A stretch of DNA of 63,171 nucleotides, the filler included, from Hausera hauseri (Eukaryota): the NCBI GenBank assembly GCA_046269625.1. It is 11 parts of 11 records of this genome, joined end to end, with 100 filler letters (N's around TTAATTAATTAA, not from the genome) between each part and the next. Parts side by side here need not be neighbours in the genome. Positions count along the whole stretch, not along the records: positions 25,070 to 31,608 come from JBJURY010089321.1; 10 more parts are not named here. One strand, 5' to 3'. Shown here one piece after another: positions 3,001-62,109 of this stretch. The position numbers and the translations under genes are program-made. Each line of letters begins with the position of its first letter. Position 1 is the first letter of the stretch. Under the pieces are notes generated by a model, which saw only the letters and a program-made list of their open reading frames with translations, made no database searches and was not told where the DNA came from.

Positions 3001-3200
3001 TTCGCCAGCCACTATCCTTTTCGGTATAATTGTCGATTTTCTTATCCAGTCTTTCGCCAACATCGGTAATAAAATCTTAGGAATATGGTACGGCTCCATG
3101 TGACAGGTACTATTGTTTCCTGTCGCCTTGTACGTTTTCAAATTATGCAAGTTCATAATACTGCACTTTGCAGTGATGTTAGAATTTCTTTACTTCGGAT
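96..3200 (-). pseudogene. Polinton/adintovirus-type family B DNA polymerase (pPolB) with internal endonuclease VII-like domain, frameshifted
   Basis: Motifs in order across frames on the minus strand: DNYTEKDSGW; HDCFTGRYLGAACNSCNL..VVFHNFRG; FLDSLQFL; motif A LLYIDINNLYGWDLSQPLPYG; motif B NNSLYAKAVENLKKR; PSYIGQVVLDLSKLRMY; degenerate AGDT(D)SFF; DTSNY..IGSFKDE..FLRPKCY; C-terminal KVALSSNDDKR..YGH, stop at 96-98. Start is approximate. Confidence 0.9.
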
Positions 3201-3398
3201 TCAAACCGGTTGCGAACACTGGACGATACATACCTTAATTGCGTTGTTGTTTTCTCCGACATGTCCACTTTTATATGCACGTACGATATGTTCATATCGT
3301 ACATGATAGTAATGAAAGTTCAGGTTCTTGCTGCGGCTGCTGTTGTTGCTCCTGCTGCTGCTGTGATTGTTAATGTTGCATGTATTTGTCATGACTTG

Positions 3399-3782
3399 TT
3401 AATGCTTGACATTTCCTACTAGTTGAGCGTATGCTGCTGCTGTTTGGCTTTTTGAACGCCGAAATTGGTTCAAGTAATCCCTATGGTCGTTATAAAATTG
3501 TTCGCAGTTGATTTGAGTTGCAACTATCGAACAACCGGGATAAACATAGGCCCGTTTACCTTGCACCGTTGTGGTGCTATAGTATTGCTCCATTTTACTA
3601 TGACATTCATTAACTTTATGCACTTTATTATTACAATACCGTGAATATACGGGACAATGCACACTCATCATCTTTTTAGACAGTATCAACAGACCAAGAT
3701 GATGTCTGCATTTCATAAAAATTGGGGTACAGACAGTGTGTTGGAATATTACACACGGGACGCAAATATATGTCCTTGTCAA
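3399..3782 (-). CDS. Hypothetical Cys/His-rich small ORF upstream of pPolB, probably a Polinton accessory gene
   Basis: 127-codon ORF co-oriented with pPolB; no family recognised. Confidence 0.3.
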   Translation of the reverse strand: MTRTYICVPCVIFQHTVCTPIFMKCRHHLGLLILSKKMMSVHCPVYSRYCNNKVHKVNECHSKMEQYYSTTTVQGKRAYVYPGCSIVATQINCEQFYNDHRDYLNQFRRSKSQTAAAYAQLVGNVKH

Positions 3783-4472
3783 TGGTGTAATACTTCACCA
3801 TCTGTTGGTGACATTTATCTGCGTCATATCGGCGCGAGACACAGTACATGGGATATTCAGTGCATTTCTAAATGAAATAAATTAACATTTGTTATGTATT
3901 AACTTTATAAGTAGAATAAATTAAAACACAACAAAGATATAACTTGTTTCCATTATTATTAAACTACGACATGTTTAATTTACGCAGCTATAAACATTTC
4001 AACACTATTAAACATCAAATTGAACAGTACACTGAAAGTGAGATTCAAAGATTGACTGATGACATAATGACTGGACAGGTATTTGATGTTGAGTTTTATG
4101 TGAGCTCGCAGAAACTAGAATAATGAGCAGACGACAATATATTGAATTAATAGTCCGATCTCTCTTCCTAAAACGTATTGAAGATGAAATGAAACGAAAT
4201 CCACAGTAGGTTAATTTCCTCATTGCACTTGCATTTTCTGCTTCGCTTTGTATTATAATGAAAACGTTGATTGACCATATTTAATAATGATAGATTGTAT
4301 TGTTATAATACTTTTGTTCATTTGAAACATTATTTTGCTGCATTTGTTTTCATGAATTAATGTAATTTATTTCGTGTGTTTGTTACATTGCAGTATAAAT
4401 ACTTGTGCTTTTTTACTGCATGATATTACGACATGTCTCATTTAACGACACTCATCAGTTTGTATCACTCTT

Positions 4473-10742: not shown

Positions 10743-11300
10743 AGGTCAAACTGGATTTTTTATCTATATCCCTGGGGTATTTTACAGCATAGGTTTGGGA
10801 TCCACCGATTGATAGCACAGTATTTCGTCTGGGGGATTTGGTCTTCCAAGCGGTATAAATCGAACCGAGATCCGGTGAGATTCGGTTAATTTCGTTCTAG
10901 TTTTAATCTGGATACATGTGTTTTCCAAATCTTTGGCGACCTCCATTATATTTTCGTCTAGTAATTTCTTTGGAGGGTCGGTACTTTGAATTGCATCAGT
11001 AAATTTTATACGAATTTTCATGTATTCTTTAATAGTCTTGTCGGTTCCAAAGCAGATACATGGCTTCTTTTAATTTGCCTCGTAGGCTTTCATTGTTTTT
11101 AGATTTTCTATATCTTTTCGTCCTTTCACATGTTGCTGTTCTTCATTAATCTTAGTTTCCCTTCCACTCTTGGCAATTCGATATATATCTGTTAAACTGG
11201 CTTCGCTGTCATCCCACCATTGTGCTTTTTAGTCTTGGAAACATAAGAGGCGATTAATGATAACGCTAAGATTATATGCACGTAAGACATTGGTCTATTA
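10743..11300 (-). pseudogene. Post-integrase accessory ORF with signal-peptide-like segment
   Basis: After YNLRS comes hydrophobic MSYVHIILALSLIASYV, then KPCICFGTDKTIKEYMKIR..ENTCIQIK; truncated by the contig end. Confidence 0.5.
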
Positions 11301-11399
11301 ACTAGTGAAGATGTCTTTGTTTTTCTTTTGTCTTGACTTGGGTTTAAACTCTGATCTTTGGATCGCAAATTATAACATTTTTCTGGTTTAATTTTGGTT

Positions 11400-14300
11400 T
11401 TCACGACTCCCTATGGATACTACCTCTTCTTTTCCATTTTTATTAATATAGACAGTGGTTGTGGTAATTCGGGTAACTTCGTAAGGTCCTCGTCCGGTAC
11501 GAGTAAGTTTTAATGACGTACCTTTCCTCGCGACTGAATAATGCACGTAGACCAAATTTCCTTTTCTAAATCGTGGAGTTTGGCTTTCGTATCGTGTTGT
11601 TTCTTAAACTGCTCTTGATATTTGAGAGTAAGTGTCTTTGCTATATCCCAACACTTTCGTAATCTCGTTTGTAAAACTTCTGCGAAATTCGTTTCTAAAT
11701 CTTCTGGGTTTGCGTGATAAGGAGTTATTCCTAAGTCAGTAGGTAATATTGCTTCGCGTCCATACATCATAAAAATGATGTAAATCCTGTGGCAGGATGT
11801 TGAGCTGTATTGATAGCAAATTATGTCCCTTCTAAAAATTCGTCCCAATCCTTTTGATCTTTCGCGGCTACCGTCAATAAGACTCGTAGAACCGTTGCGT
11901 TTATACTTTCGACCATTCCGTTGCACTGAGGATGATACGCGGTAGTGGTTACTCGTTCGATTTCGAAAATCTTAATGATTTTATCAAATAACTCGCTCGT
12001 AAAGTTCCTTCCTCTATCGGTTAATATTAGATCGGGGGTCCGTATTTGCAGATAACTTTCCTTACTACCGCATCTGCTAAAATTTCGGCCTTTTGATTGA
12101 TTAGTGCTATTAATTCGACGAAATGCGTTAGGCAATCCACGCACGTCATAATATATTTGTTGTTTTTATGAGTTGTGGGTAAGGGCCCTATTATATCCAT
12201 AGACATAGCTTGCATAGGTCTATCTGGTACATTGATCGGTTTTAATTCTGCTATGTAGTTTTTCACCGTCTTTTGTTTTGTTGTACAGACTTCGCAAGCA
12301 TTCATCCAGTTTTTCACGTCGATATAGACGTTTGACCAGAAACACTTATTCAATATTCTTTCTAATGTTTTCTTCCATGACATATGTCCAGATAATGTGA
12401 ATCATGTTCGGCCATTAATACTTCCATTCGTAATGCTTTTGGAATAACTACCAGCTTCCGTCCCTTTCGTTCGTAATATAAAATATCTCGATTCGATGCA
12501 TAATATTCATGTCCATGTCTTTGTAAGTGTCTCTTTAGTTGGCGTCCTTTCGGTATTTCATCTCGCTCGGCAAATTTGATTATTTGTTGAATAGCTTTAT
12601 TCTTGGCTTATTCTGAAGAAATTTTGATTTTTTATTTAGTGTTAAGGTCCGTTGTCGTTCTACTAATTCTTCCAGTTGAGCCTTCTTCATAGTGGCAATC
12701 GTACTTGTCTTGGTCTTAATTCTTGATATCGTATCTGCGTCAATATGTTTACTTCCGGATTTATATTGAAATTCGATACTCTATCGGGAGATTTCCTCGA
12801 TCCACCGATTTAGTCTACATGTCAGGATATTGTCCCATCCCTTTAACGTTGTAACAACCTTGTGATCGGTAACTATAATAATTTTCTGCCCGTAGACATA
12901 GGCATTAAAATGCCTTAAAGCTTCTTTCACGGCTAATGTCTCTAGTTCAGTGACTGAATAGTTTTTCTCAGCTTTCTTAAGCGATCTTCCTCCATATGCA
13001 ACTGGGTGTTCCAATTCTTTATCTTCTCGTTTCTGAGTCAATTCGTAACTAATTCCCTCTTTACTTGCGTCTGTTTTAATTACAAATGGTAAGTTGAAAT
13101 CAGGATATCTCAACACTGGTTCACTTGTTAAAATTTTCTTTATTTCATCGAACACTTTTTGTTCGATATCGGTCCATTTCCACTTGATTCCTTTTTTCAA
13201 TAACCGATATAATGGTACATTTATTTTCGAATTGTCTGGCACATAAGTGGCATAATATCCACATAGACATAGCCAATGCCTTAATTCTTTCTGATTTTGG
13301 GGTTCCATACAATTTGATATTTTGTTTAGTAAAGATTTATCCGGCTTCGACCCTCCTTCTCCGACCACATGTCCAAGATAAGATAAAGAATTTTGTGCCC
13401 ATTTACATTTCTTGGGGTTCAGTTTCAATCCTGCCTGTTCCAATCGCATAAGAGTATCATTGATGTCCTTTAGGTGTTTCTCTTCTGTTCTTGATGCTAT
13501 CATTACATAGTCTAAATATGCGAACGCATGATCGAGTCTCATTAGCATTTTATTCATCATTCTGGTGAAGATAGCTAGGCCGGTTGTTATACCGAACGGC
13601 ATGACCTTAAATTAGTAAACTCCGCCGTGCGTCTTAAACTCTGTTTTGTAATGCTCGTCTTCTTCAATATCTACTTGCCAGTATCCTGATTGTAAATCCA
13701 GTGTTTAACCATTTTGCTCCTGATAATCTGTCTAATAATTCTTCATTTACTGACGGTAGTGGGAACGAGTCTTTCATCATAAGCGTGTTCAAGGCTCTGT
13801 AATCTAGACAGAATCGATGTTTGGTGGTACCTTTTTTCTTGATCATAAGTATTGGAGAGTACCAAGATCGGTAGCTTGGTCGTATTATGTCGGCCTTCAA
13901 CATGCATTCTACCCCTTTGGTTATTTCGGGCCTTAATGAGTGAGGCCGTGGGTACCATTTTGGCATCTTTTGCACTTCCAAATCGATTTCATCATTGGAG
14001 CCAACTTTCTTTTTTAATGGAATGGTTAACCTTAAGGTTTTTGCTCTACCTATATCCTCTTCATTTTGGGCAATAATTGATTTATATCTGCATAGTAATT
14101 CATAAAATTGACAGTATGCTTCTGGTGAAAACTTTGTTTCGACATGATGTGGAAATTCGGCACACTTTTATGGTTTTTCTTTGATTGTTATTGCCGATAC
14201 CTTATAAGTACGACCCAATGTAGTATTGGCATATGACTTTACGGGAGTCGGCGCATTATTCATCAATCTGACTGGTACTCTTCCTGTCGTTACTCTTGTC

Positions 14301-15457
14301 AAAATGTTACTAAGTATGATATTTGGATTAACGTCTTCTTGTGGTTCAAAATATACTGATTGGTCGTCCTCTTCGCAAATTTGAGCATAAGTTAGCATTT
14401 CGGTTCTGGGCGGAATATTTTCGTCGATAGGGATCCCTACTTCTTGTTTTCTTTCTTTCATTGTTTTAATACCTTTCACTGGTCCGAGTTCAAGTAATTT
14501 TCCGGTCTGTAAGTTTATTGCGATATTGGGTAGTTATTTCAATATGTCGCAACCTATCACTACAACGTCGGTTAATTGATCCATTATGGCAAAATCGTGT
14601 CGAAGGATTTGACCCATCAATTGGATTAAAGGACTCCATTTAAACTTTGGTTTGGGTTCTTGCCCGAAGGCTCCTATGCTGCCTGGATCTAACGATGATG
14701 CTGGCTGCAGTTGTTTTCGTAGCGTCGGCGGTACTGATTCTAATTTTATAAATGATTTCTCCGATCCGGTGTTTATTAAGGCATAAACTTCCCAATCTTC
14801 AATGGTAACTTTTGTGAAGGGTTTTCCTTCCATAATTGACGTATAACAACTCGACACGTCCTTTGGTCGTTTAATTGAAGAAATCTTATGTCCGTTTATC
14901 GTTATCTCTGGTGATGAAATAATATTCTCGGTCAGTTGCTTCAGTTATTCGTTAGGGTATAAGTCGTTAACTGCCATATTATTCGCATTGTTTCTAATTA
15001 ATGGTTCTTGTACTATTGGGTTTTGGTACGATTTCATTCCTGTAGTTCCCCAGACTGTTAATTTTGTCTCTATATTGTGAGCTATTCTCGGTGAGTACAA
15101 TATCCCATGGTCATACTCCGCTCGATGTTGATTGGTGATTTGCATTTTCTTTAATACTCCATATTGTTTTATCCCTTCATAAGTATCTTCATAGCTAAAG
15201 GGTTTCTGACAGAATGCCCATCTATATGATACCATAGGTGTTTTGTCACAATCCTCGTATATCGGAGCCGTTGGCGGCATGATAGGTAAGGGTGTTCTAA
15301 TCTCTGAATACTTTCTATGTCTATTTTGTCCGAGGATTTCTTCTCCTCCCTTAGGCTCGTCATCATCAGAGTTATTTCTTCGTGTCCTTGCTTTCTCGGC
15401 CTTGCTTTTTAATCGAAATATGGGTCTTGCACATCGTTTGTCATTATAGTAACGTCA
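11400..15457 (-). mobile_element. Ty3/gypsy pol (PR-RT-RH-IN), decayed, with an upstream linker homologous to the post-glycoprotein linker at 51800-52480
   Basis: PR ALI(N)TGSE (14534-14857); RT SWYSPILMIKKK..RFCLDYRALN and AYLDY (mutated YxDD); RH KTDAS..ELETLA..VTDHK; IN SMDIIGP, LTDRGRNF, PQCNGMVES; GPY module GPYEV. Confidence 0.93.
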
Positions 15458-23330: not shown

Positions 23331-24569
23331 TTTGGAATTTGTGCTGGTTTGGGATTTTCTTGTACGTAATCAAAGTCACACTAGAACCAATTATAGAGCG
23401 ATTAAAAATAAACGGTGTGAATTACTTTTATTTCATCATCAAACAATAAAGTACAATAAGATGGATCCTTTCATCTTTTGATTAATGGGTTAAACGTTCT
23501 TATCTTTTGTTCATACGCCTTGTACACATCTATCAATTTTGAAATATCCGTGACCTTAAATGACCTCATGTGACAAATTCCGATTCACCCCATGGGGAGA
23601 TAAGCAATAAATTGCGATTCACCCAATCAGGGAGATAACGAATAAGTACAGATTCCGATTTACCCCATCGTCAAATTGACTTTTGTTTTAACGCATCAAT
23701 TTAATTAAAGTGGGTCATGTAGGGAGTTTCCTCCAGATAACCCATTTTTCCACTACTAATAGGAAACGAAAAATTCACCTAACTTTACAATGTTTTATTT
23801 TTATGTTTTGTAAAGAAAATCAAAATACGTTGTTAGACTTTATAATTTAAATAAATTTCAATATTGTAAATTTCCAATTCACCTAAATTAATTTTTTACG
23901 TAATATATTAGGATTTTAAATTTTTGAATGTCCCTAAAAACAAAATAATTTGGTCGATTTAACATTTGAAGAGAATATTTATGAGGCAAATTAAAAAACT
24001 ATTGAAATTCTTATAAAACATTTTAAGAAATTTTGGAATAAAAATTTAATTTGGTTTAAAAATTTAATCAATGTTTGATAGTTAAACTGAGTAAAATAAA
24101 TTGTTTTAAATTATTAATACATTATGTACGCTTTTATGTTAATTACGAACCACTGTCTGGTAAATTGATTGATTAATTGGTATAATGCATTTTAATAATA
24201 TTGAGGGAGCAACAATGCACGGTTTGCAATGCATTTCAGCCCTATCTGCCCTCCCAGGCGACCGCCAATACGGAGTTTAAATAGAACGAGCCACATTTAT
24301 TTAAAGGAAATTAGCGTCACTGATTTATTATCTGTATATGTCAAATACAATTAACAAATTAAAAGGAAAATCAAAGTTTGGCTTATTGATAAAGTTTAAA
24401 AATGTCTGGTAACCATTTATTGGTATCACTGACAAGGGCGTATGCAGGAGGGAAGAGTAAACCCCTTCCCAAAAATTCGAAAATTAACTAAAGTCGTCAT
24501 ATTCGCTGGGCACAGCAGCGTGCCAAGGGTGTTCCCAAAAAAGGATTATTTAATGGATGCCACAAAACT

Positions 24570-24969
24570 CGTGCCAATCACAATTTGCGCCAATCACAAT
24601 TCGTGCCAATCACAATTCGTGCCAATCACAATTCGTGCCAATCACAATTTGCGTCAATCACAATTCGTGCCAATCACAATTCGTGCCAATCACAATTTGC
24701 GCCAATCACAATTTGCGCCAATCACAATTCGTGCCAATCACAATTCGTGCCAATCACAATTTGCGTCAATCACAATTCGTGCCAATCACAACCTGCGCCA
24801 ATCACAATTTGCGTCAATCACAATTCGTGCCAATCACAATTCGTGCCAATCACAATTTGCGCCAATCATAACTCGTGCCAATCACAATTCGTGCCAATCA
24901 CAATTTGCGCCAATCACAATTCGTGCCAATCACAATTCGTGCCAATCACAATTTGCGTCAATCACAATT
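24570..24969 (+). repeat. 16-bp tandem repeat (about 25 copies, runs into the gap)
   Basis: Unit GCCAATCACAATTCGT, with variants GCCAATCACAATTTGC and GTCAATCACAATTCGT. Confidence 0.97.
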
Positions 24970-25069: not shown

Positions 25070-25400
25070 GAATCCCAATACTTTCCTATAATCTTGCATC
25101 AGTATGAATTCAAATGTATGAAATAAGTCTATTCCAACAACGAGTTTTCCTATTAAGTGGATTTTAATAGTAGATAGAATCAAGAGAATATCGTGTTGAC
25201 CAATTATGTCAGATTCTTTTAGCCCAGTGAGATGACTGTTATAATTGTCTACCTTATCCCGGGGACAGATAATTTGATCGATAATAACTTTTCCATTAAT
25301 ATCAAGAATGGTTATTTCTACTAATGCCAGTTCCTTTTGTCGTGTGGGGTTCAGCAAATAAGCATAATTAACTGCCAGTATTATGATATCATTATTGGTT
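25070..25400 (-). CDS. REX4/ISG20-like DEDDh exonuclease fold, apparently catalytically degenerate, C-terminal part of the retroelement accessory ORF
   Basis: ELALVEITILDINGKVIIDQIICP..VDNYNSHLTGL..DI..LIGKLVVG matches the REX4 pattern (ARVSIVN..G.V.YD..V.P...DY.T..SGI..L.G.ILVGH). In frame with ORF 25673-27049 across one TGA. Confidence 0.7.
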
Positions 25401-25672
25401 ACGATTGATGATCTAATGAATGATATTCCTTTTTCCAGTAAGGAAATACTGGGGATTGTAATAGGATATTGGGGAACTTCCTCATTAAGCCGTGCTATTT
25501 GTTCGGTTCTTATTGCTTCAATATATATAATTGGACAAGGGCCACCGAATGTCCTGAGGGTAAAAACGACGTTTTCTAAAAATCTTTTATCCAGTCGTAT
25601 AGTACTGAATACCGTGATCTCAACGTTATCTGTTATGCCATTATTATGGGCCTTGCTTCGTAACTGAATACT

Positions 25673-27430
25673 TCATTTAGAAACGGATATATATACCGCT
25701 AATGTATTATTTGAGACCGTAATTAGATCAGATAGGTGCGTTGAAGAATTGTTCATTTTGAGAATGAGACTGGACCTCTGATTAACTGAATATCCCTTTA
25801 GGTTGTTGGGAATTAAAGAAGATTTGCCATAATAGGAATAATCTTTGTTAATGGTTGCCATAAGATTGGCAGTTATGTTGAAATAGAACGATTTTGGCCA
25901 CTGTACTAATTCTGAGCCTTCTTTAACTATAAATAGACAAATCAATGGCAGCCAAAACAGTTTAGGAAAATATATAATATTACATTTCATTTGTTTATTA
26001 TTATGGTAGGTCGCGAGAAATTTAGCGGCCTCGTCTTGTACACTCGTACATAGACATAAGGTTAGATTTGTTAACGGATGGGTATACCGTTTAGTGTCTT
26101 TACGGTCGCAGTCTTGCCGTTTTTCGCTAGTAACATTGTACGGTTGGATTACCCGCTTAGAATTGGTAAGCTTTTCAGCCTGCCATTGATCACTCATAGT
26201 GTTCTTGTTTAAGTCACCATCCCACTCATCCTGTGAGTTTTCTCTTAGTAATTTTAATTGGCGCAACATTTTTCTTGTTCTTAATCTCCTACTTCTTATT
26301 TGTGAATAACAAATTATTAAAGGTACAAATACAGCCATTAGTAGGAGGAGAACGCATAATGTTAGTATTATCCATAAATGCGGACTCAGGGTGTTTGAAT
26401 GATTTGGCGAAGTTGTCGTCTTTAGAATTTTTGTAGTCATCGTAATGATTTGGTTTAATGTTTTCTCTACGCGATAGATCATTTGTAATTTCTGTCCGTC
26501 TTCGTCTAATTCAGCTATGATAACGTTATAGTTTGTATTAGGTTTCAAAAACATTAAAGCTGATGTGGTTTCTTCAGGTGTTATTACGCCTTCGCTAACT
26601 ATTCTGTTATGCAGAAGACATTCAAATTTTGTGTTTTTCAAATCTGGTATAGTGATTATAAGCGAATATGCTGTTGAGTGTATATTTACTTCAAGGTTCT
26701 TTACAATTTTAGACTGGATTTCAATTGATGGGCTAGTAGTTGTTATATTTTGTATTGGTCGTGGGGCATATGATGTTATTCTTGTTGAAACCGTCGTTGT
26801 CGTCATTGGTTGAGAGTTTTCTATTACTTCTGGTCCATCTGACCACCCTGACCATGTACGACCATTAGTTGTTGTTCGGTAATGTATGTGATATAATTTA
26901 TTGAACGGAAAAGGACAACAAAAATATGGTTTTTGGTAATCTATTAGACATTTTATAATAGTAGTTTGATTTTGCATCTCATATTCTATAGAGTAATGTC
27001 CAGTTAGTGGAATTTCTGTTTCAATTGTTACGCATGGCCCATTTCTCATGATCTTAGTATAAAATGAAACAAAAAATATGGCTGGCGGAAGTAATAAATC
27101 GTACCAGGGTATGAAAAATAATTTCTGTGTCTGACCTCTATGTCCAATTGAATATTGAATTCTATGATATACTTTAAACTGAAGTCCACAACAAGTGTGT
27201 TAAGTGACCGTAATATAAATCACAATACTTTGGTATTGCTTTATACAATGAGGTTATTCTTGAAATAAATATATGTATATATTTGCCGTACGTTAAGTAT
27301 CGACTGGCTGTAATATTTACACACGGGTATCGCCCAACCTGTACGGCTTTATATTGTACGGTCGGATCTTGGGACGATATACAGGTTACTAAACTTAGCA
27401 TCATGAGCATTGCTATTAACAGTGAGTTGG
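25673..27430 (-). CDS. Type I membrane glycoprotein fused behind integrase: signal peptide, two Cys/FN3-like domains with WSGWS, Thr-rich stalk, FN3, TM, cytoplasmic region
   Basis: SLLIAMLMMLSLVTCISS in the integrase frame; one frameshift near 27200; WSGWS at 26840-26854; LKPNTNYNVII FN3 motif; TM LWIILTLCVLLLLMAVFVPLIICY followed by RSRRLRTRK. Confidence 0.75.
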
Positions 27431-30400
27431 GATTTTTATTTCTAATTTTAGATTCTACTGGTGCACGTTTACATCTGTTTGCATGAACTTTTATTGGGTC
27501 CATTTCATTTCTTTTGTTTTTATTCAAATAGATGTTTGTTTCATTTACTTTTTGGATCATATATGGACCTTTATATGGTCTATCCAGTTTTGGCGTTCTT
27601 CCTGTTTTACTCAAAGGCGTATGTAACATAACTTTGTCTCCTGGTTTGAAACCATGAGATTTTGCCTTTTCATCATATCTATTTTTATACTCCTTTTGAC
27701 ATATTTTTGTATTTCTCGAAGCTAGATTCCATATATATATCCCAGTTTTTCCTTCAATAGTTCTTTATACTCCATATCATTCAAATGAAACATAGGCATT
27801 TTGAAATCTATATCAATTGGCATATGGGTATCCCTAAGGTACATTAAATAGAATGGAGTTTCTTTCGTCGCAAGATGTATTGTATTTCTTATTGCAAATA
27901 AGCAAGGTTTAATGTATTTATCCCAATCATCCTATCGTTCATTGACCATTGTTGCTAGCATGTTGGTCAAGATACCGTTAAATTTTTCTACAGTCCCATT
28001 AGTTTGTGGGTGATACGGAGTAGTCTTCAGCTGTAATATTTTGAATATTTTAGAGATTTCTTCCATTACTTCTCCTGTAAAATTAGGAGCTTGATCAGTT
28101 AATAATTTAGTGGGTGCTCCGTAATTAAACACGATTTCTTCGACAAATGCTTGGGCAATGGTTTGAGCCTTTTGATCCGGTATTGGGATCACAACTGGCC
28201 ATTTGGAAAATAAGTCTACAAATACTAACATATATTTATTCCCGTTTATTGTCATAGGCATCGGTCCTAGAATGTCCATTACTGAGAATTCCATAGGAGC
28301 AGATGGACATTTCAATGGTTTCAAGGGAACTTTAATTTTTCTTTCTCTATTTTTCCTTGTAGCACAGATGGGACAACTTTTACACCATTCCTCTACATCT
28401 TTGGACATTTTATACCAATAGTATTTTCTTTTGAGTCTGCCTAGAGTTTGTTTCTTCGACTGGTGTCCACCCAACATCCCATCATGATATTGGATTAGTA
28501 ATAATTTTACATTTTCTTGGGAGATAATAACAGCTAATCTTCCTTTGTGGTTGTAATATAGTATTCCATCTTTTATCTGATAATTTTCAGCGAACTTTAT
28601 CAGATGGAAATAAAAATCATTATCTTTTGGTATGATCTTCTGGAGATATTCTTTAATCTGTTTTATTTGATCGTCATCTTATTGTTTTTGTTGCAACGAT
28701 TTTTCCCTTTTCGTGATATTCCAGATAGCTTCTATAACACCTGGTTTATCCTGTATTGTTTCTTCTTTTTGATCTATATCTTCGGGTGTTCTTGACATGT
28801 AATCGGCATTTGCATTGGCCTTACCAGTTTTATACTCGAATTTTAAGTCGTAGAATTGTAGTAACATGGCCCATTTCATTAAACGACTATTTGGATTTTT
28901 ATGATTCTTTAACCATTGTAGTGGTTTATGGTCAGTATAAATAACAATTGGTTTAGTTTCCGATAAGTACTGACCATATTGTTCTAATGCATATACAATC
29001 GCGAGTAGTTCTCTTTCAATAGTCGAATAATTCTTATGTTTTCTCAATTTTTTTCCTCCGAACGATATTGGATGCTCTTGCCCTTGATCATCCTTTTGTG
29101 ATAAAACGACTCCAATTCCTACTTTACTTGCATCTGTCGCCAAAATGTATGGCTTAGACATATTAGGATAAGACAATATTGGTGGAGCTAGTAAATTATC
29201 CTTTAACTGTTGATATGCCTTTTGACATTCTTGAGTCCAAATAAGTTTAGAATTCTCTTGTAATAACGAATGTAGAGGAGAAGCTATTTGCTGATAATCC
29301 TTAACAAATTTCCGATAATAGCCTGTAACACCAAGAAATTTTCGAACTCCTCTAACTGTCTTTGGGACTGGAAAATCCTGAATTTTATTGATTTTTCCAA
29401 TCTGTGAACTAATACCATCTCTACTTACTGTATGAACTAAGAAGTCGACTTTAGTTCGAGCAAAATAACATTTCTTTAAACTAATTTTAATTCCTAAGAG
29501 TGCACATCTCTCTAACATATCTTTTAGATGTTCTTTGTGTTGTTTATAGTCGCTTGAGGCTATTATTACATCACCCACGTAGCACATTATGTGTGGAGCA
29601 TCCATAGTAATTATATCCATAGCCGTCTGGAAGGTTGCTGGAGCATTCTTCATTCCAAATGCCATACGATTAAATTCATAATGTCCATCTGCAGTTACAA
29701 AAGCAGTGTTCTGTTTATCTTCTTCTTGTACTTCTATTTTCCAGAAGCCTTTTTTGTAAATCCAATGTAGTAAATAACATCTTGTCCTTTAATTTATCGA
29801 ATATCTCATCAATTCTCGGTAGTGGATACGTGTTGTCTACTGTTACTTCATTCAGGGCACGATAATCTACACATATCTTTATGGATCCGTCTTTCTTTTG
29901 CACCATTACAATAGGTGCCGCCCATGGTGAGTTACTTGGTCTAATTATATCATATTGTTTCATTTCGGCTTTTATTTCCTTGGCCTTTTCTCGTTTATCA
30001 TAATTAAGGCGCTATGGCCTCTTTTTGATGGGACTCTCCATTACAGCTTTTAGCTTAATCTTGTGTTTGATAACGGGTATTATACCCATATCATATACGG
30101 CTGTTGCAAAGGTATCTTTATATTATTGTAGTATTTCGACTATATCTTCATTCTCCACATCTATCAGTGTACTGCCCTTGCCAAACAGGTCATGATCGTT
30201 CCAATTAATAGGAGTCTTAACAAATTTTGTTATTTTCTTCTTTTTATTGCGATGACTTTTCAATTTATTCATTGGTTCATCTTCTAATCGTATTCCACCT
30301 TCTGTTCGCGGGTTATATCATTGTCTTTCCATGAATTCAGATAACTCCTGTACAGTAGAAATAATAGCTTCCGTTACGTTGTTACTTATATCCTTTATAC

Positions 30401-30995
30401 CATATACATAGGCGATTCTTGTTCCTTTTCTAAGCAACTTAGGTTTATTAGAGGCATTGGCTATTCGAACAATCACTTGTTGTCCTCGAATGTTATCAAT
30501 TGTATGAGCTAACCATAACTCATTCTTGTCCATGAAGGTTATATTTGGTTCAATATAAACATCTCCTTCATCTCGGCCCTCTAATAGAGCTTTGAGCATA
30601 ATCACCGTTCTAGCCGGTATTAACACGTCTTCCTTAATGGCCAGTGTGTCCTTTTTCTCATTCTTTGTGTTTAATATGGCTGGATTTGTTGAGTCTCCAG
30701 ATGTACACACATATGTTTTAATTTTTCTAAGGCCTCACATCCGAGTATAGTTTCAGCCAACAATTCGTCGGCTATTCTAAATTCCTGTTCAATTTTTTTA
30801 TTAAGAACTGTTGTCTCGCATTTGACCAAATTCTTTACTTGTACTATGGTTCCAAATGCCGTGTGGGTTTTTTGCAACTTTTTCTGCAGTTGTTCTGAGA
30901 GTTGTTTACGTAAGATCATTGAGGCTGATTCTCCTGTGTCAATTATAGCTGTAATAGGATATCCATCTATCTAAATTACTGTTCTCGGAATTATC
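27430..30995 (-). mobile_element. Ty3/gypsy pol (PR-RT-RH-IN), decayed
   Basis: AIIDTG at about 30940; SPWAAPIVMVQKKDGSIKICVDYRALN; CYVGD; ATDAS..ERELLA..YTDHKPL; GGHQ..CPIC; MDILGP, LTDQAPNF, PQTNGTVEK; KGPY..VHANRCK. Confidence 0.95.
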
Positions 30996-31339
30996 ATATT
31001 TCTTTCTGTAATGTTTATTCGAAACGTCTTTTGGAGGTCATGGATAGTACATTAGCTTTACATGTTTTTGATCATAATTATCCACATCGCTTGAGAAATA
31101 TATATCTATATATTCGTTGGAAGGTATAAATGTGATTGCTCCATTGGGTATTCATTCCACTTCCTAATTTGTGGCATATCTGATAACAATGTTCTCCTAT
31201 TTTTACTTCGAGCGATAATCATATTCCATGTCTTTTTCATATTTTCTATTGGTTTAATTCTTCTCGCGTTTATCTTCTTTTACTGGAGGTTTGTCCTCAG
31301 CATTATTATCGTCTTCCTCATTCTTATTTTTATTTTTTG

Positions 31340-31608
31340 CTTCCATTCGGCATTTTTCTTTATCAAAAAGCAACTGGCTATGGATGAAATGAATGCGTAA
31401 ATAGTTTTCCATGTACAACCAGCGGCTTGTTTAATACCATATCCCTTAGTTATTATAGTCAGAATTGCTTTAATAAAGGCAAATATGTAGTAAAATCCTA
31501 GCTATCTAGAATTAAATTAATTATCCTCATGCGGTTGCGAATATTTTTTTAGCTATTTTCTTTGCATAATCAGATCCCATCAAATTTTCCTAGTTAGTTT
31601 TTCCGTTG
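31340..31608 (-). pseudogene. C-terminal membrane region of a chuvirus-like glycoprotein, upstream of the protease
   Basis: 31498-31340 reads GFYYIFAFIKAILTIITKGYGIKQAAGCTWKTIYAFISSIASCFLIKKNAEWK. It aligns with AIYFLIQLIKAVTQAVINGYEIYTLTGFLCKILTAIITPLGKF/LKAYEENRWK at 51670-51830. Not in the ORF track. Confidence 0.75.
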
Positions 31609-41650: not shown

Positions 41651-41988
41651 TTCGGCGTCGAGAAGTTTTGATAGAGAACAACAGCGAAAGATATTGATAT
41701 TGGTATAAATGTTGAACTTCAGTATCGAATTGTGAAGTTTTCATTATTATTATTAATGTGACAAATTTGGGTTTGAGTTGTCACTGTGTATGTAAATATG
41801 TAGGTAATGCTAATGACTGTATTAATGAGAATGTAAATATTTGGTTGTAATGAAAATATTGACTACAATTAAATATTGAATGGTTTTTGTAATTTAAAAA
41901 AAATATAAACGTTGGTAGTTATTCCATAGTTATTATCTCTAATTCTTTTATTTGGAATTTTTCATTTTCTCATTTTGAGTTATCTCAT

Positions 41989-43719
41989 TTGTTACTAACA
42001 ATGGTGTCAGACAATTATCCTGGAAGAATAAAAATGTACATATGTCTATATCTCTTGGATATTTTGATCATGATTAATATTTCCATTATGTCTATTTATT
42101 CCATTTCTCAAGAAATCGTCACACCGTATTTTTTGTTAACAATAATAGGCGGTCTCGTTAGTCCAGCTACTCGTACGCTAATACCAGATCAAATCCCAAA
42201 ATCAAACAAAGAAATGTTTAGTACGTATTTGCACATTATTTACTTTGTTAACAATTTAGGTGTAATAATGCATAATGATAATTATTGTTTTGGTATTGAA
42301 TGCTATCTATTGGTATTTTTTGCGTCGACAGCTCTTACGTTGCTTTCCTTCATTTTGTTTATCATTGTATTCTATTGTAGATGTTTTCTAGTCTACAAAC
42401 CCACCGAAAATTTGCTACTCGACATTTTCCGATTTACATCATATGCAATTCCCCAGCGAATCAAACTGGTAAAACAAGATGACAGCAAAACGTGGTTAGA
42501 CTATTCAAATGAAAAATTTGATCCACCATTTGTTAATGATGTAAAAATGATATCTTCAATTTGGACTTTACAGGCTCAGTATTTAAATAGAATGATTCCT
42601 GAGACGTATACAATAAAAGCCTACCAAATGCAAACACTAAATCCTATCTTAGTTGTTGTATTTATTCCAATTTTTGAACTAGTTGTTTATCCACTTTTAG
42701 GAAAAATTAAATTTGAAGTTCCTTATCGAATATCACTTGGCCAGTTTTTTACGGCAGTTACATGCACTTCGATGATTGTGATCCAGATAGAAATAGACGA
42801 ATCCATTGATACAAAAACAAGTAAAGTTCAATTGATTGTAGTTAACATTGGTAAAGAATTTGCGACTGTGACATATGGGTCATCAGAAATAATTTTGCAA
42901 AGAGCGACATTTGGTTTAGTTTCTATTGATAAACCGAATTATAACATAACAATTAAGTATGGCAATCATACAGATCAATATTCTTTAGAGAAGTACATCA
43001 GTTCGCATGTAACTGTTTTAATTGGGGATGACAATATAGATTTTTCTTTAGTTGACCGTCAAAATAATGGCGGATATGCAAATGTAAGAACCGTTGGTTC
43101 TTTTGAAAGTAATATGGAATATACAGTGACATTAAAAGGACATGTTGGCATAAATAACAATTTCAATTTCCCTACAATTAACCAGACGTTCGGAAAATAT
43201 GTCAAGTGTGGAATCGGAGCTTTTTCAATTATCGTTCAAGGTGAAAACGCAAAACAGTCTAGAAAAATTGGTAAAATCACTTTACTACCAGCTCAAACGT
43301 TAACATTAGTCATCGTTGGTAAAGACTTGTCTAGTATGTCTTTCATTGCCGTTGAGGAATCGCGTTTTTTCCTCCCAACAATTGCTTGGCAAATTTTACC
43401 GTACATTTTAGTCACAATTGGTGAAGTTCTCTTCAATGTGAATACTGGAATTTTTCTTTATGGAGAAGCCCCAATGAGCATGAAAAGTATGATGCTTGCA
43501 GGACAATATGTATGTATTGCTATTGGAAACTTATTAATTCTAATATTTAAACAAAGCCTACAAAACATAAGTGGTGTTTATCTCTTTCTTCTATGTGGCA
43601 TCTTGGTTGCACTAAGTGGAATTGCCACCGCCATGTTAACTTTTTTCTATTTGAAATCGAAAGCTAAATCTATCGAAATCGAAAATTCTTTAAATGATTC
43701 AAAGATGTCCGAATTTTAA
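41989..43719 (+). CDS. SLC15/PTR2 (PepT-like) oligopeptide transporter, divergent and probably degenerate
   Basis: DQI, CFGIECY, WLDY..F..DVK, WTLQA, QMQTLNPILVVVFIPIFE, large extracellular loop, WQILPYILVTIGEVLF..G..F.Y.EAP.SMKS..GN. The N-terminal ExxERF motif is absent. Confidence 0.8.
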   Translation: MLLTMVSDNYPGRIKMYICLYLLDILIMINISIMSIYSISQEIVTPYFLLTIIGGLVSPATRTLIPDQIPKSNKEMFSTYLHIIYFVNNLGVIMHNDNYCFGIECYLLVFFASTALTLLSFILFIIVFYCRCFLVYKPTENLLLDIFRFTSYAIPQRIKLVKQDDSKTWLDYSNEKFDPPFVNDVKMISSIWTLQAQYLNRMIPETYTIKAYQMQTLNPILVVVFIPIFELVVYPLLGKIKFEVPYRISLGQFFTAVTCTSMIVIQIEIDESIDTKTSKVQLIVVNIGKEFATVTYGSSEIILQRATFGLVSIDKPNYNITIKYGNHTDQYSLEKYISSHVTVLIGDDNIDFSLVDRQNNGGYANVRTVGSFESNMEYTVTLKGHVGINNNFNFPTINQTFGKYVKCGIGAFSIIVQGENAKQSRKIGKITLLPAQTLTLVIVGKDLSSMSFIAVEESRFFLPTIAWQILPYILVTIGEVLFNVNTGIFLYGEAPMSMKSMMLAGQYVCIAIGNLLILIFKQSLQNISGVYLFLLCGILVALSGIATAMLTFFYLKSKAKSIEIENSLNDSKMSEF

Positions 43720-47277: not shown

Positions 47278-50200
47278 AGCAACAATTTGCTGAGAGGTTA
47301 TATAAAAGTTTAAAATTATGTAGTGAAGGAAAGCTCGATGAAGCAATCGACTTAGGACAACCTGAAGAGGTATCACCCTAAACGTTGCTAAAATGAAAGA
47401 GCGAATTAGAATCATGGATTAAAAGTGGAGTCGAATTTTCGGAAGGATGGAGCAAAACGAAGATAGTGTTGATGTAAAAGTCGCTAAAGCCCAGACGCTA
47501 CTGTCTACCCTAGAAACAAATCCAAAACTGGAGAGTAGTCCGCAATTTAGAGCGTATGATGGATGAAATTCGCTGTGCAATGATTAATCGGCTTAAAGAA
47601 AAACCGGTTAACCACCGAAGTGACATTGATTTAGAGATGGGTATAGACCCAGCAGATATTCCTCCCTTAATGGAAATGAGAAAAATCGCCTTCGCTGTAC
47701 CCAAACAATATACGAACCTAGAGAATCGTATCAAAATGGAAAATAAAAAGCGAACACAAATCTGTAGTTTGTGAAATAGAATTGTTTCTAAATTACGAAG
47801 AAACCAAAAAAGCTTGTGTCGTACAATTTAATGAATATAAGGATGAGTTTAGTTATGTTGGCCGGATAATAAATTTAATAAAAGGTCCAGATGATGAATT
47901 AAAGGATGCGTATAAGATGCTAGACAAGGCTATATTAGCGAAGCCGATAATAGCTAACGAACTACGGGAATGGTCCGAATTAGTAGTGAAACTAAGTAAA
48001 CTAGTGGAAGACCGTAGGAAAGAATTTCCAGAAAGCAAGCCCCTATAAAGAAACAATTAGAAGAAAGTGTACGTAACTTAGATACAATACAAGCGGAAGT
48101 AGATATCCGGACTCAATTCGAAGCATTACGACAATTAAATTTTATGAAGAAGAAGCAGAAAGTGACGATATTGGAAGAGATATATAAAATGATCGAAGAA
48201 ACAAACTTCACAGAAAAGCGGAGTATGACTTGCAATTTTTATCGAAGATTAAGGAATGTTCGCCTAGAGGGAATCCAACATTTAATAGCTAAGTCTACTG
48301 AAGAAATTTCCATCCAGGATATCGGAACTGTAGATATTTGTCCAGAACATAAAACGGCTATAGAAGAAGCACTGAGATTCATACATAAACCACAAGAATG
48401 TATGGCCGGAACAGATGAGAACTGTCATACGGAGTTGACAAAAATAAGAAACGATCCTCATCTTAGTTTCGAAGAAGCTAAGTTTATAAAGAAATTGCTC
48501 GACGCGATAGATCCCGACTCAAAAACCGTTAATGAGATGTACGAGCTAGCTTTTCTTTTAGTAGATATAGCAGAAATTAGTGATGAGAAGATGAGACAAT
48601 TGATGACTTAAATACGGCAGGCCGAAGAAACGTGCATTAAAACCAAACAAGGAGCGACAAGGTTAAACGAATTAACCAAAGAACTCAAAATTTATGGAAA
48701 CAAATATGCTTCTACCGAGTCCGAAATCAAAAATAAGCGTGAATTTGTATAAAGATGGCAGAGATGTAATTATTGAACTAACTGATTATTACCAGAAGGG
48801 ACTCATCCATTCTAATGAATGAAGCAAACTATTGAAAATAATTCAGTATGCCTGTGTAAACAGAATAGGTTTCTGAACTACGCGGATGAAAGAAATACAG
48901 CCAAGATTGAAAGAAATCCGAGAAAACGTGTGCAGACTCAACATAACGTTGACAGACTATGGGCTTCCAGCCGTTGGTAATGAACCGGAATGAAACGCGT
49001 AATTAGATGCAATAACGGCCGAGAATTATGTGACTGTGATACAGCTAAATGAATTAGAAACGTGTCCGCAGAACAGGAGATTTAATGTGGAGATGCTCCT
49101 GGATCCAGCGCTAACTGAAAGGGATTTAATTGAACTAATTAATGTAAACATTGCTGAAAGTAAATTAAGATAACTCTTTCTAACTTTGACTAAATTATCT
49201 AGTGAGAGCACAATTTATAGCACGGCACCGAAACTTTTGATAAATATGTGCTAAAACCTTAAGGGCTAAACCTGAGGTGGCGATGAAAGTAAAAGTATCG
49301 TCAGAATGGATGGAGGAAAGGGAGTGTGGAGTAAGTACTTATTTATATGTGAAGGATCTAAGAGACGGGTTGATAAACAATTGTGGAACAAATGAGTTAA
49401 GTTATAGATTCTACTTCACAGGTAGGATACTGGATGACTTAGAACAATTAATAGACGTCAGGATTATACCCGATGAAACAAACCGTATAGTGGCCATAGT
49501 AGCCAACGAGCAGACTAAGGAAGAAACCACGCGTGAGGCTAAGATCGAGCAGTGCGTAGGACAAATTATTAGAGTCCGAAACGCTGAAATGTTTCGGGTA
49601 TTTGCAGACGGATGAGGATAGGGAACAATACGATAAGAATTTAGTGCCATTAAACGAAATAATAGCAACTGGCCCTAGACAGAAACGTCCGATCGGCAAA
49701 CCCAAGGAGGCACGAGAAGAGATCGAATATAATGGAGAATTGATTAGAGAACTGCGACAGATGTCCATTCCGACTTTCAGCGTAGAGAATGAGTTGATCG
49801 AATTAATGAAGAACTTAATAGCCATCGTAAATCATTCAGGCCTCCAAGGCGACACATTAGATGATAAGGGGAAAGCGATATTTGGCGTCTCTAGAACAAT
49901 GAGAAACTCCCGCTTCAAATTACCGAAAAGTAATTTGACCGATAAACAAGGTGATTGAAAAGATTATTGTGGAAAATACGACAGAAGAACTAAGAAAAGT
50001 GTTACCGTATTTAGCTATCAAGACAAACCCTAGTCGGGAAAATGGAATCAATAAAGCTGAGCTTTGCACGGAAGGCGGCTACAAAACTGCCCCAAGAAGT
50101 AAGTTGGTCAAAATTGTTCGATGAGGAAGATAAACAACTCAATAATAGTGACTGATGTGAAGATATGCTGCGGAATCTTACGACAACGGATAACAGTAAC
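47278..50200 (+). pseudogene. Long decayed coding region upstream of the glycoprotein (helical domains, ubiquitin-like domain, possible Gag capsid)
   Basis: Chain of + strand ORF pieces with consistent purine-rich bias; LRQMSIPTFS near 49750 only weakly Gag-like. Confidence 0.5.
49277..49505 (+). CDS. Ubiquitin-like domain within the retroelement polyprotein
   Basis: MKVKV..VKDLRDGL..YRFYFTGRILDDLEQLIDVRIIPDET..IV parallels ubiquitin (VKAKI..[26 protein letters not shown].HLV); no terminal GG. Confidence 0.6.
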
Positions 50201-50219
50201 CGAAGAAACGAATCGAACT

Positions 50220-51830
50220 AGTTAATTAGCTTACTAACTCTGATGACGTTGAAAAACAGATGGGTGCAGTCACGGTCTATGATTGCGATAAATTCAAACT
50301 CGGACAGAAATACTTCTTAATGGACTTGAAGGCGTGCGAAGACGCCAGACCGCATAAATTAGAAAAGAGAAAAGTTATTTCCTATATCAAAAAGAATTGA
50401 TAGCATCGGACGGACTGGAATGTATGTTACGACGATCACGTAGTATTTTTCGCTGTTGATTAAAGCACGGACACTCATCGATAATCAAACCGACGACTAC
50501 CTTAATTCTAATGAACTTGGAACGACAACATTGTAAGCAACCCAGGGTAACGGGAAGATTAAAATGGGATAGCACAAAACTTGAGATTCAAGCAGGAAAG
50601 ATAATTAGAGCATATAAAGTAGTAGCTGGGAGACTAGATATGCATAACGGACATTGTAACGGAGCAGAGTACGACGCCGGAAAAGGACTAGAAGCAAACG
50701 TAGTGGTCGTACATTTCTATGAAAGTGATGTTCCACAGCGTCACCAAGCCATATACCGATAATCAAAAATGCCATTTACAAGACGGAACGCGTGCTTTCA
50801 GAAGTTCCGTTATAATATGGAAACCCCCTTCTGGAAGAAACTGTAATTTATCAAAATCAAGGAATTGAAATTTAATGAAACTACCGGCAAATGATGTGGA
50901 TAAATCCAAGGACACGTGAGGACGTAGCAGAACATTCCACACCAACTATATTAATCTCCGACCCTCGTGAGGAGACGGAAATAAACACGAAGACTTAAAT
51001 ACTGGAGATGCAAGATATTCGTATTGAAGACTAGTTGAAAAATCGAGACAATTATTTCTACTGATTTAGCATCGCCAATAATTCCTGAGAGAAGGAATTT
51101 TTGGTCGAGTAACCGGTGAGGTTTTATTGACTCATGAATGTGAGAAACGAGACGTACAAATCAACGTCGAAGAAAAAGGATGCATACAGGAACTCCCCGT
51201 TATTTACCAGAATACTCCACGGTTAGCCATGCCGCTTACTAGAGTATTATTAGATAATGCGACCGAACCAACGATCCTTAAGGAATGTATGGCAAGTTTA
51301 GGAGAACATCATGTATAGATGTAGCAAAACGGATTGGGTAAGCTTGCCAAATGGAGGTATTATTGCCGCCCCAATTAAATTAACAGGAACTAACCTCGTA
51401 AAAGGAATAACGGACGACAAATTCCAAGACACCTCATCAAAGGGTATATATACCAAAGGAAATCGAAGCATTTAGACAATTTCTTGATTTTCCGGGACAA
51501 TAAACACACGAGTTAAATCGTGCCATTGCCTTGGTAGTAGATTATACTGGATATCAAGCTAAATGGAAATCCTTCCTCGGAGCAAACCATTACCAATGGG
51601 TAAACATGGAAAGAGTCTATAAAATTTGGGGAAGGTTTTTAATTTTTGGACAAGCTGCATCAGGATTTTTAGCGATATATTTCTTAATCCAACTAATTAA
51701 GGCAGTTACCCAAGCAGTAATAAATGGATATGAAATATATACGTTGACTGGATTTTTGTGTAAAATCTTGACTGCAATCATCACACCCTTAGGAAAGTTT
51801 TAAAGGCATATGAAGAAAACAGATGGAAAT
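50220..51830 (+). pseudogene. Chuvirus-like class III fusion glycoprotein (env), frameshifted
   Basis: Hydrophobic LISLLTLMTL, then VYDC..LMDLKAC, EC..R..FRC..HS, HCK, VAGRLD..GHCNGAEYD..NVVV, GEVL..EC..CIQELPVIY.N..MPLTRVL, TM WGRFLIFGQAASGFLAIYFLIQLIK..INGY. This is the Cys and motif pattern of chuvirus G and related retroelement env as remembered. Confidence 0.8.
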
Positions 51831-52953
51831 CGGACGTAGAACGTCATGTTGGCTACCACAATTGCAAACGGAAAGGGAAATCTACGTTTTTGTACATGCA
51901 GAAGTTCTCTAAGCCTAAAACACAAAGAAATAATTCGGATGATGACGAGCCTAAGAAGGAGAAGACTCCTTTAAAACAGATATACATAAGACATACTCCA
52001 TCGTTAAGGCATTATTGCCCATGTTACCCACTTCCGCTCTAGTCTATGAAGACTGCGACAAGCGATCAATGAGTTCATACTAGACAGAAATATATAAGAG
52101 AACAATTAATTTGGAAGACGCTTACAAAGGAACAAAACTATATGGAATTCTACGAAAAATGTGCTATCGTCAGTCTATGGATGATCCTAGAATTCTGTAC
52201 TCTCCAAGAGAACCTCGAAATATAGAAACTATACCAACTGTCTGGGGAAATCCAATACTACAGATCTTCCGGAATATAGAACCGCATACTAACAACCGAG
52301 AGCCATAAATTAGTACTTATGAAACGGAAGAATTGAACATCGAAAAGAATGAATTATATCGAAATGGGGAACTAAAACAACTAACAGAAAATATCGTATA
52401 CTCCCAGAAATCTGGATAAACGGTCACAAGATATCGGCAGCGAAACGCCCAAAAGTTGTATCAAATTGTTTCGGAACGATAATCGAAGGACGAGCTTTCG
52501 TTAAAATCATTATTGAAGACTGGGAAGTTAATACCTTAATTGATACAGGCTCCGAGATATCTTACATCAAAAACGACTCAATTCCTCAAACGTTAAGGGG
52601 ACAGTTATATCTACCGTCTACGAACGATCCCGGAAGCACAGGAACTTTTGGCCAAATGTCGAAATCGATGTTTAAATGGAACCCAGAAATTCAAATAGTT
52701 GCACCGTTTTTCCGTCACGAATTTGAAGTTATGGAACAATTAGCTGACGATGTAGTTTTAGGCTGTAATTTACTGAAAAGTTTACCAAATGTAACAATCA
52801 ATTAGCAAACAGGAAAACTAATAGAGATTAGGCCAAATAAAGGCGTAAAAATCGCTAAAGATAGGAAATTTGGAGAAGTATGGATCCAAGTAGACGAAAA
52901 CATTCCACCAAGAACAGAGGTGGTAATATACATCAAAATCCAACAAGATAATG
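51830..52953 (+). mobile_element. Linker and retropepsin protease of a Ty3/gypsy pol, homologous to 14200-15457
   Basis: NNSDDDEPK, YEDCDK, ILYSPR..NIET..TVWG, LKQLTENI, IEDWEV..LIDTGSE, DPGS.G.FGQ, DENIPPRTE are all shared with contig 3. Confidence 0.92.
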
Positions 52954-58090: not shown

Positions 58091-58750
58091 TGTCGCTCAA
58101 ACAGACCTCAGATACAGAGATGATGCCCGACTCCAGACGTTTTTCATGCACATCCGTGTTAGTTTCCGCAGTCCATCGGCGTACCAATGCACGTTCGCTT
58201 CTCTCCTCAATCTTTACCAATCATGCTTCATCGTTCGTTCCAACGGCAGATTCAGCTCAATTTCATCGTCAATGTCGGCAAAGTTGAACGATGTAAACTT
58301 GATTACGTTGTCCAGCGAAGATTCCATTTAACCTTCGGAAAAACTTCTTTTGGACGAATATTTAAAGAAGTTCCATGAAATTTTCGAAGGTGAAGATTAT
58401 ACTCTCGAAACTCCAGCATACCATCATCAGTGTGTTTTATATTTAACACCACTTGCATTGGCCATTTATATAAAACAAAAAAGCGGCTTTGGAAATGATT
58501 TGGTTTTGGTAATACAATATTTTCTTTTAGATATCTTTTTGTGTAAAGACTCAACATACTAAAAACAGAACATATTTATGAATCACAATCCTTAAAAATG
58601 CTCAGAGAAAATGAAACCCGATGAATCACTGACGAATCCATTTGTTCATTTTCTGTTCCCGTTAGTACTAAAAATATTCATTGTTTACAAAGGCTCAATT
58701 GCATCATCACAGCCCACAACAAAATGTCTAAATTTATGTAATCGAGATGC

Positions 58751-62050: not shown

Positions 62051-62109
62051 GATTACTTGAGATGTCTTTAGCAAAATCTGCCCAATTAGAACTTGACGAT
62101 AATCCTGTT

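Follow-up and report, generated by a model that had tools for sequence, protein, structure and literature searches.

A predicted fibronectin type III membrane protein, probably carried behind the integrase of an envelope-bearing Ty3/gypsy element of Hausera hauseri

Errantiviruses with a GAG-ENV-POL order, whose Env belongs to the HSV/gB kind (HSV, herpes simplex virus), are known from Nematoda, Bryozoa and Platyhelminthes through the work of Chary and Hayashi (PMC13524379). In descriptions of envelope-carrying Ty3/gypsy elements, the fusogen is the single surface protein. Here a stretch of 63,171 nucleotides from Hausera hauseri (assembly GCA_046269625.1), filler included, is analyzed, in which short contigs follow one another with N-padded spacers in between; the whole stretch is indicated as the window, and all positions refer to it. 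Its focal part, 25070-31608 (6.5 kb, JBJURY010089321.1), contains on the minus strand a decayed copy of a Ty3/gypsy element, envelope-carrying and with the ENV-before-POL layout. Behind the integrase lies a predicted membrane protein with fibronectin type III (FN3)-like domains, indicated as the cargo: it is probable that this FN3-type protein is borne by the element.

The order along the minus strand is Env remnant, protease, reverse transcriptase (RT), RNase H, integrase, cargo (Table 1). The protease-RT-RNase H-integrase order of Ty3/gypsy errantiviruses is recovered by motifs, Pfam and tblastn. Upstream of pol, a gB/chuvirus-type env is present with its C-terminal 54 residues only: the match to Pfam family PF24664 (Monjiviricetes_fusion; E=7.1e-4) scores 18.1 bits and does not reach the curated cut-off of 27, and the remnant is 28% identical, over 39 residues, to the better preserved Env end of a sister element (51504-51800). 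An upstream fusogen had been proposed in an earlier reading, made from the sequence without database searches (the sequence-only reading): it holds but is not new, since an env of the gB type ahead of pol is already known from nematodes, bryozoans and flatworms (PMC13524379). The RT/RNase H reading is interrupted by stops and by a frameshift near 29750, as judged from tblastn frames, and the integrase by a stop near 27933 and a frameshift near 27720; in total, four stops and two frameshifts are found in the part of pol alignable to a related pol. The focal copy itself is dead. Between integrase and cargo there is no intron, no long terminal repeat (LTR) and no stop; no purine run of 12 bases or more, as a polypurine tract, is found in 25070-27800.

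Table 1. Features of the focal element, listed in order along its minus strand
Feature	Position	Strand	Evidence or remark
Env C-terminal membrane-anchor remnant, gB/chuvirus type	31298..31498	-	PF24664; remainder beyond contig end 31608
Decayed aspartic protease region	30700..30970	-	DTG motif in translation
Reverse transcriptase and RNase H	28682..30155	-	RVT_1 E=6e-21, RT_RNaseH E=3e-35 (Pfam)
Integrase: zinc finger, core, GPY tail	27468..28678	-	Integrase_H2C2 E=3.5e-19, rve E=4.9e-14 (Pfam)
Predicted internal signal peptide	27372..27428	-	in frame with integrase tail
D1, FN3-like via D2 similarity, four Cys	27089..27371	-	broken by frameshift near 27200
D2, predicted seven-stranded FN3-like domain, four Cys	26819..27088	-	AlphaFold, Foldseek, VIA, ESM Atlas
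Ser/Thr-rich stalk, one N-glycosylation sequon	26726..26818	-	45% S/T, 31 residues
D3, predicted membrane-proximal FN3-like domain	26462..26734	-	VIA fold match
Predicted transmembrane helix and basic stop-transfer stretch	26279..26374	-	hydropathy, model
Charged tail, 106 residues	25991..26308	-	pattern scan
Second cargo reading frame: hydrophobic start, unassigned beta-rich part, stop, ISG20/REX4-like exonuclease	25070..25990	-	cut by contig end

The cargo is read from two frames. The first (27764-27177, minus strand) is open and leads from the integrase tail, through a hydrophobic stretch, into domain D1: the GPY motif is at 27569-27561, likeness to another pol stops at 27468, and a signal-like stretch of 11 residues, with mean hydropathy 2.78, occupies 27419-27387. 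The signal peptide was called by hydropathy and by inspection by eye; it contains three Met codons, possible alternative starts. The second frame (27199-25676, minus strand) features 508 open codons, far beyond chance: when the contig was shuffled 300 times, no frame longer than 151 codons arose. It includes the sequence WSGWS (26854-26840), at the end of D2, expected from composition with a frequency of 7e-4 per open reading frame (ORF), the stalk, LKPNTNYNV at 26548-26522, a transmembrane (TM) window at 26371-26315, with hydropathy 3.13 over 19 residues and a modelled helix of predicted local distance difference test (pLDDT) 75-87, and a basic stretch at 26296-26279. A thrombospondin-type WSxWS was ruled out, as the CSxTC of that motif does not follow WSGWS.

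D1 and D2 were compared after placing an X at the break of D1: the score is 57, against 26.1 +/- 4.8 for shuffled sequences, and is reached by none of 2000 shuffles. Taken singly, the two halves of D1 are more weakly similar to D2 (80 and 8 of 2000 shuffles reach the score), and both score best in the frame used. A pattern C...C-x9-CC is common to the two domains. Judged by their sequences, D1 and D2 form a duplicated pair. D3 has no detectable sequence similarity to either D1 or D2 (score reached by 1582 and 690 of 2000 shuffles). The continuity from integrase to signal peptide, the two tandem related domains with a frameshift near 27200 and the motifs listed above had all been indicated by the sequence-only reading, and are confirmed; the predicted anatomy of a type I membrane protein is likewise supported. 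A better preservation of the cargo, relative to pol, was considered and dropped: two breaks in about 2.4 kb and six in about 2.7 kb are too few for such a claim.

Other copies were read from the contigs of one public sequencing run (X1), with 80% likeness to the window; depth is not to be taken as copy number. The contigs cover all 30 bins of the interval 25900-27800. Among those listed, each difference site in 26515-27422 is seen in 4 to 31 contigs, and four pieces within the ectodomain and TM region (176-262 nt) carry 23-43 differences, corresponding to 13-19% of sites, with zero gaps. Summed depth is 130-810 over D1-D3 and 23-141 over TM helix and tail, while at 27436-27499, the boundary between integrase and signal, cover rises more than 20-fold towards the integrase side, from 168 to 4213 to 15175. 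This pattern fits a minority subfamily, with a cassette starting at the signal peptide. The ORF is therefore considered as the cargo of a subfamily, and not as a neighbouring host gene, because it is intron-free, many diverged contigs contain it and its depth is far below that of pol. The sequence-only reading had given a neighbouring host gene, absent from other element copies, as the result that would count against it; many diverged versions of the cargo are seen instead. Such a gene, or a chance join in one decayed copy or in the assembly, is very improbable: the contig is short, no LTR is in view and none of the listed contigs spans the junction intact, all in keeping with it, but the ORF is intron-free, in frame with the integrase and on the same strand, has many diverged versions and is followed by a second multi-copy, intron-free ORF.

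The cover of the cargo, far lower than that of pol, is also what would be found for a passive passenger, derived from the mRNA of a host FN3 protein, which a template switch at the end of the integrase brought in and which was then multiplied with one subfamily, without any function. A silent fraction of differences such as neutral change predicts agrees with this origin: 10 of 31 differences are silent, where 29% is expected, although the 31 sites, drawn from 40 of 225 and 40 of 952 difference rows, are biased to the private changes of the focal copy and uninformative. The one "stop" among them is an artefact, generated by scoring separately two neighbouring differences of one codon. A passenger of this kind is nevertheless improbable: the junction is in frame and placed at a signal peptide, 508 codons are open, the diverged pieces described above align without gaps, and no close parent was found in any search, though recent captures of conserved host genes are usually recognisable. 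No indel near 27200 is listed in other copies; this is uninformative, because none is listed at the focal pol frameshifts, near 29750 and 27720, either. No RNA dataset is found among the listed public runs carrying the contig.

Homologues were searched with several pieces of the element. The segment from D2 to the tail found no true homologue among 1.84 billion protein representatives; its sole match, a bacterial repeat protein, was dismissed as spurious. No homologous longer proteins were found for the GPY-signal-D1 piece, nor homologous proteins for the exonuclease of the second ORF. Searches of viral contigs with the integrase, and of metagenome contigs with the cargo, gave no match, while two metagenome loci were found with the RT, one of them an ordinary gag-pol element without cargo. 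Sequence searches of PDB returned noise only, whether made with D2-tail, with the initial part of D1 or with the beginning of the second ORF. The closest database pols are at most 46% identical (best 120 of 1095). Fusion of integrase and signal is not general, since a hydrophobic stretch, and a weak one, follows the integrase in only one of the 108 nearest pols with a full integrase match.

The ability of the domains to adopt an FN3 fold was evaluated on AlphaFold models built from single sequences; both are poor single-sequence models, because no homologues are available (pLDDT 39.5 for D2-TM and 52.4 for D2 alone). In these low-confidence models, D2 and D3 are made of seven strands each. For the D2-TM model, almost all matches listed by Foldseek are tandem FN3 pairs, gp130 being first (E=2.3e-3) and fibronectin second; for D2 alone the best is an FN3 domain of integrin beta4 (E=0.012), with MER, titin and Dscam also in leading positions. 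VIA gives D2 a Z of 7.6, with a tie among IL-12/IL-27 receptor chains and pilus chaperones, and D3 a Z of 5.7 (root mean square deviation 3.5, 79 residues aligned) with a chain of the IL-23 receptor complex, other FN3 domains being tied. In the ESM Atlas, the nearest cluster is IL11RA-named for D2-tail (0.91), while bacterial FN3 and phage Ig_J clusters are nearest to D2 alone (0.91). No part of the cargo matches Pfam fn3. In a library of viral folds, a turtle herpesvirus CEACAM-like protein and a lymphocystivirus FN3 protein are best (E about 5e-4, TM-score about 0.2), to be taken as a lead only. D2 and D3 thus likely adopt FN3 folds, as the sequence-only reading had proposed, the prediction resting on weak language-model features together with AlphaFold, Foldseek and VIA. 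As far as these models go, the fold methods do not separate cytokine receptors from other FN3 proteins.

The distinction is relevant, as the sequence-only reading had described the cargo as a captured class I cytokine receptor. The class I module, in the sections of PMC1963337 used here, consists of CX(9-10)CXWX(26-32)CX(10-15)C in the first FN3 domain, WSXWS in the second, and Box 1 inside the cell. Features shared with class I receptors (Domeless/gp130, CRLF3) as described there are the tandem FN3-like domains, WSxWS ending the second, a further FN3-like domain, a single TM helix, domains and helix being in our case predicted, and a partial Cys spacing: between three Cys of D1 there are 32 and 10 residues, fitting the C2-C3-C4 part of the motif. 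The cargo differs from those receptors in that it lacks CX(9-10)CXW and Box 1, carries Cys in each of its two tandem domains and has a stalk between D2 and D3. D1 has its Cys at residues 17, 50, 60 and 61 and its sole Trp at 89, so that the first Cys and the CXW are absent; according to the same sections, CRLF3 also has WSXWS without the Cys motif. In the 106-residue tail, a pattern scan found no PxP, PxxP or YxxQ, hence neither a Pro-rich JAK site (Box 1) nor a STAT-docking motif. D2 is matched equally well by integrin beta4, MER, titin, Dscam and bacterial FN3 domains as by receptors, and no cytokine-receptor family of Pfam is matched at E 10. Class I membership fails because CX9-10CXW and Box 1 are missing and generic FN3 domains match as well, D1 and D2 being moreover each other's duplicates: the cargo is receptor-like in outline, not a member of the class. 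For a captured receptor, no parent gene has emerged from the searches.

Some receptor alpha chains likewise lack Box 1 and YxxQ. A receptor-derived ectodomain without a JAK-binding tail might act as an immune or signalling decoy, soaking up a host cytokine-like ligand or jamming a Domeless-like receptor; poxvirus cytokine-binding proteins and Drosophila Latran/Eye transformer are parallels. The tandem pair ending in WSGWS, the C2-C3-C4 spacing of D1 (as given in the sections of PMC1963337 cited above), the absence of Box 1, the IL11RA-named cluster as first Atlas match of D2-tail and the common occurrence of gp130-family chains among top fold matches speak for it. Yet D1 lacks the first Cys as well as the Trp of CXW and is a duplicate of D2, the clusters nearest to D2 alone are those of bacterial FN3 and phage Ig_J and its nearest folds those of integrin beta4, MER and titin, and neither a Pfam cytokine-receptor family (at E 10) nor a parent gene was found: a decoy is considered unlikely, albeit worth retaining.

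A second ORF follows, overlooked in the sequence-only reading: the frame of the first cargo continues into a hydrophobic start at 25990, and then meets one stop at 25673-25675. Its exonuclease part is of the ISG20/REX4-like DEDDh type (phmmer against ISG20, 1wlj, E=4e-6), without a match in Pfam; the hydrophobic N-terminal part has no match. The second Asp of the ISG20 stretch GHDLKHD is replaced by a non-acidic residue; the strand corresponding to ExoI, by the ISG20 motif positions, contains by eye no D or E, and ExoIII would lie beyond the contig end. From these residues, the exonuclease appears to be catalytically dead. The ORF has no intron, and diverged contigs cover it without gaps, at depth 30-260. 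A dead exonuclease in this position also resembles a counter-defence module, a further point for the decoy.

Sister elements are found elsewhere in the window. One (47278-52953, plus strand), decayed, features a long upstream region, a gB/chuvirus-type Env and then a protease; in 50230-51800, three of six fragments match PF24664, with best E=1.1e-13. It is a clear example of the ENV-before-POL order, plainer than the focal copy. A second (10743-15457, minus strand) is a decayed Gypsy pol, with an identity of about 33-38% in its longer matches to the focal pol, where a hydrophobic stretch (11281) directly follows the integrase and leads into a sequence unlike the focal cargo. By eye, it was judged to belong to the same family as 47278-52953, and a PPTAPIY late-domain-like motif was seen upstream of its protease. 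Another decayed Gypsy element (53864-57229, plus strand) shows gag-like, RT, RNase H and integrase pieces.

For the function of the cargo, an accessory adhesin, placed beside the gB-type fusogen and with adhesion as main job, is proposed tentatively, at somewhat less than an even chance. Through the internal signal, the ectodomain would enter the endoplasmic reticulum; the signal peptidase of the host would then cut a type I glycoprotein loose from Pol, and the element protease would trim the integrase from the signal stub. Alternatively, the same product would result if translation began at a Met codon in the signal, on an RNA made by splicing or a subgenomic one. The stalk would project a disulfide-bonded D1-D2 pair off the membrane, whether of particles or of producer cells, and there the pair would bind a partner on target cells, raising the chance of fusogen action. 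The stalk, the sequons and the absent signalling motifs fit a binding protein. With env placed upstream, the slot after the integrase is left free and looks like an exchangeable cassette. A more elaborate scheme is rather doubtful: a two-part entry machine, composed of a class III fusogen before pol and of a cytokine-receptor-derived FN3 adhesin, freed by signal peptidase, as a swappable cassette setting the cell tropism of each subfamily.

Several observations weigh against an adhesin borne by the element. Several class III fusogens act without a partner, so that an adhesin is not required. The copy evidence all comes from one run, possibly the source of the window itself, and cover is thin over TM helix and tail. 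The intact integrase-signal junction is bridged by no listed contig, so that linkage of integrase and cargo in other copies can only be inferred, and one listed contig joins 27283 to 27487, with a short side of only 24 letters. The silent fraction does not demonstrate selection. The homologue searches, without a true match to the cargo, and the single hydrophobic stretch among 108 pols, already reported, point in the same direction. As to the folds, both models have a low pLDDT, no Foldseek match in PDB is found at E 0.001, VIA Z stays below 8, pilus chaperones, NEAT domains and expansins tie as fold matches, and the Atlas recognition scores (2059 and 2027) do not reach the mark of 2300.

Other features of the window are a 608-codon, intron-free open frame (41893-43716, plus strand), by eye a PTR2-like peptide transporter; long open stretches (58742-62526, plus strand), by eye an FKBP-type isomerase and a CLUH-like sequence, possibly retrocopied host sequence; and a tandem array of a 16-bp unit (24483-24960), reaching the contig end.

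Among the known systems, the elements of PMC13524379 share the gB/chuvirus-type env upstream of a Ty3/gypsy pol; unlike the focal element, no post-integrase membrane protein is described for them in the main text, where "fibronectin" and "cytokine" do not occur, and "fibronectin" is also absent from the seven text supplements. In supplement 1, neither an LTR nor a tRNA site is called, within the flanks examined, for any of the six Schmidtea ENV-POL entries: long accessory regions or unannotated cargo would fit the missing LTR calls, though other explanations exist. Burro/GYPSM1, the giant planarian Gypsy elements, as presented in the cited parts of PMC6431247, feature an Env between gag and pol and many accessory, host-like domains in or beside the polyprotein; unlike here, these are BIR, BCL2, MATH, ankyrin and SUMO-like, mostly upstream of the protease, with no FN3 surface protein among them. 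The LTR elements of bdelloid rotifers with extra ORF3s, in the cited parts of PMC5408684, share an exchangeable post-integrase slot, occupied by TM proteins or DEDD exonucleases; their exonucleases, however, belong to the DEDDy type and keep the catalytic residues, none of the TM ORFs is of FN3 type, and the focal element differs in having two cargo ORFs in series and env upstream. In v-MPL of the myeloproliferative leukaemia virus, according to the cited parts of PMC8500957, a retro-element likewise carries a cytokine-receptor sequence fused to a gene of its own. There TM helix and signalling tail are kept, most of the ectodomain is lost and the fusion is to Env, while the focal cargo keeps its ectodomain, shows no signalling motifs and is joined to integrase.

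If the proposed reading is true, ENV-before-POL elements put the slot left empty by env to a new use, filling it with modules for attachment or immunity in the manner of large DNA viruses, and cargo downstream of pol becomes a feature to be searched for in the ENV-POL elements already published from flatworms, bryozoans and nematodes. In the literature, subscription papers being mostly outside reach, no LTR retrotransposon was found reported with FN3 or cytokine-receptor-like cargo. Post-integrase ORFs, accessory-rich elements and the v-MPL capture are precedents in kind; a predicted FN3 surface cargo behind the integrase appears to be new.

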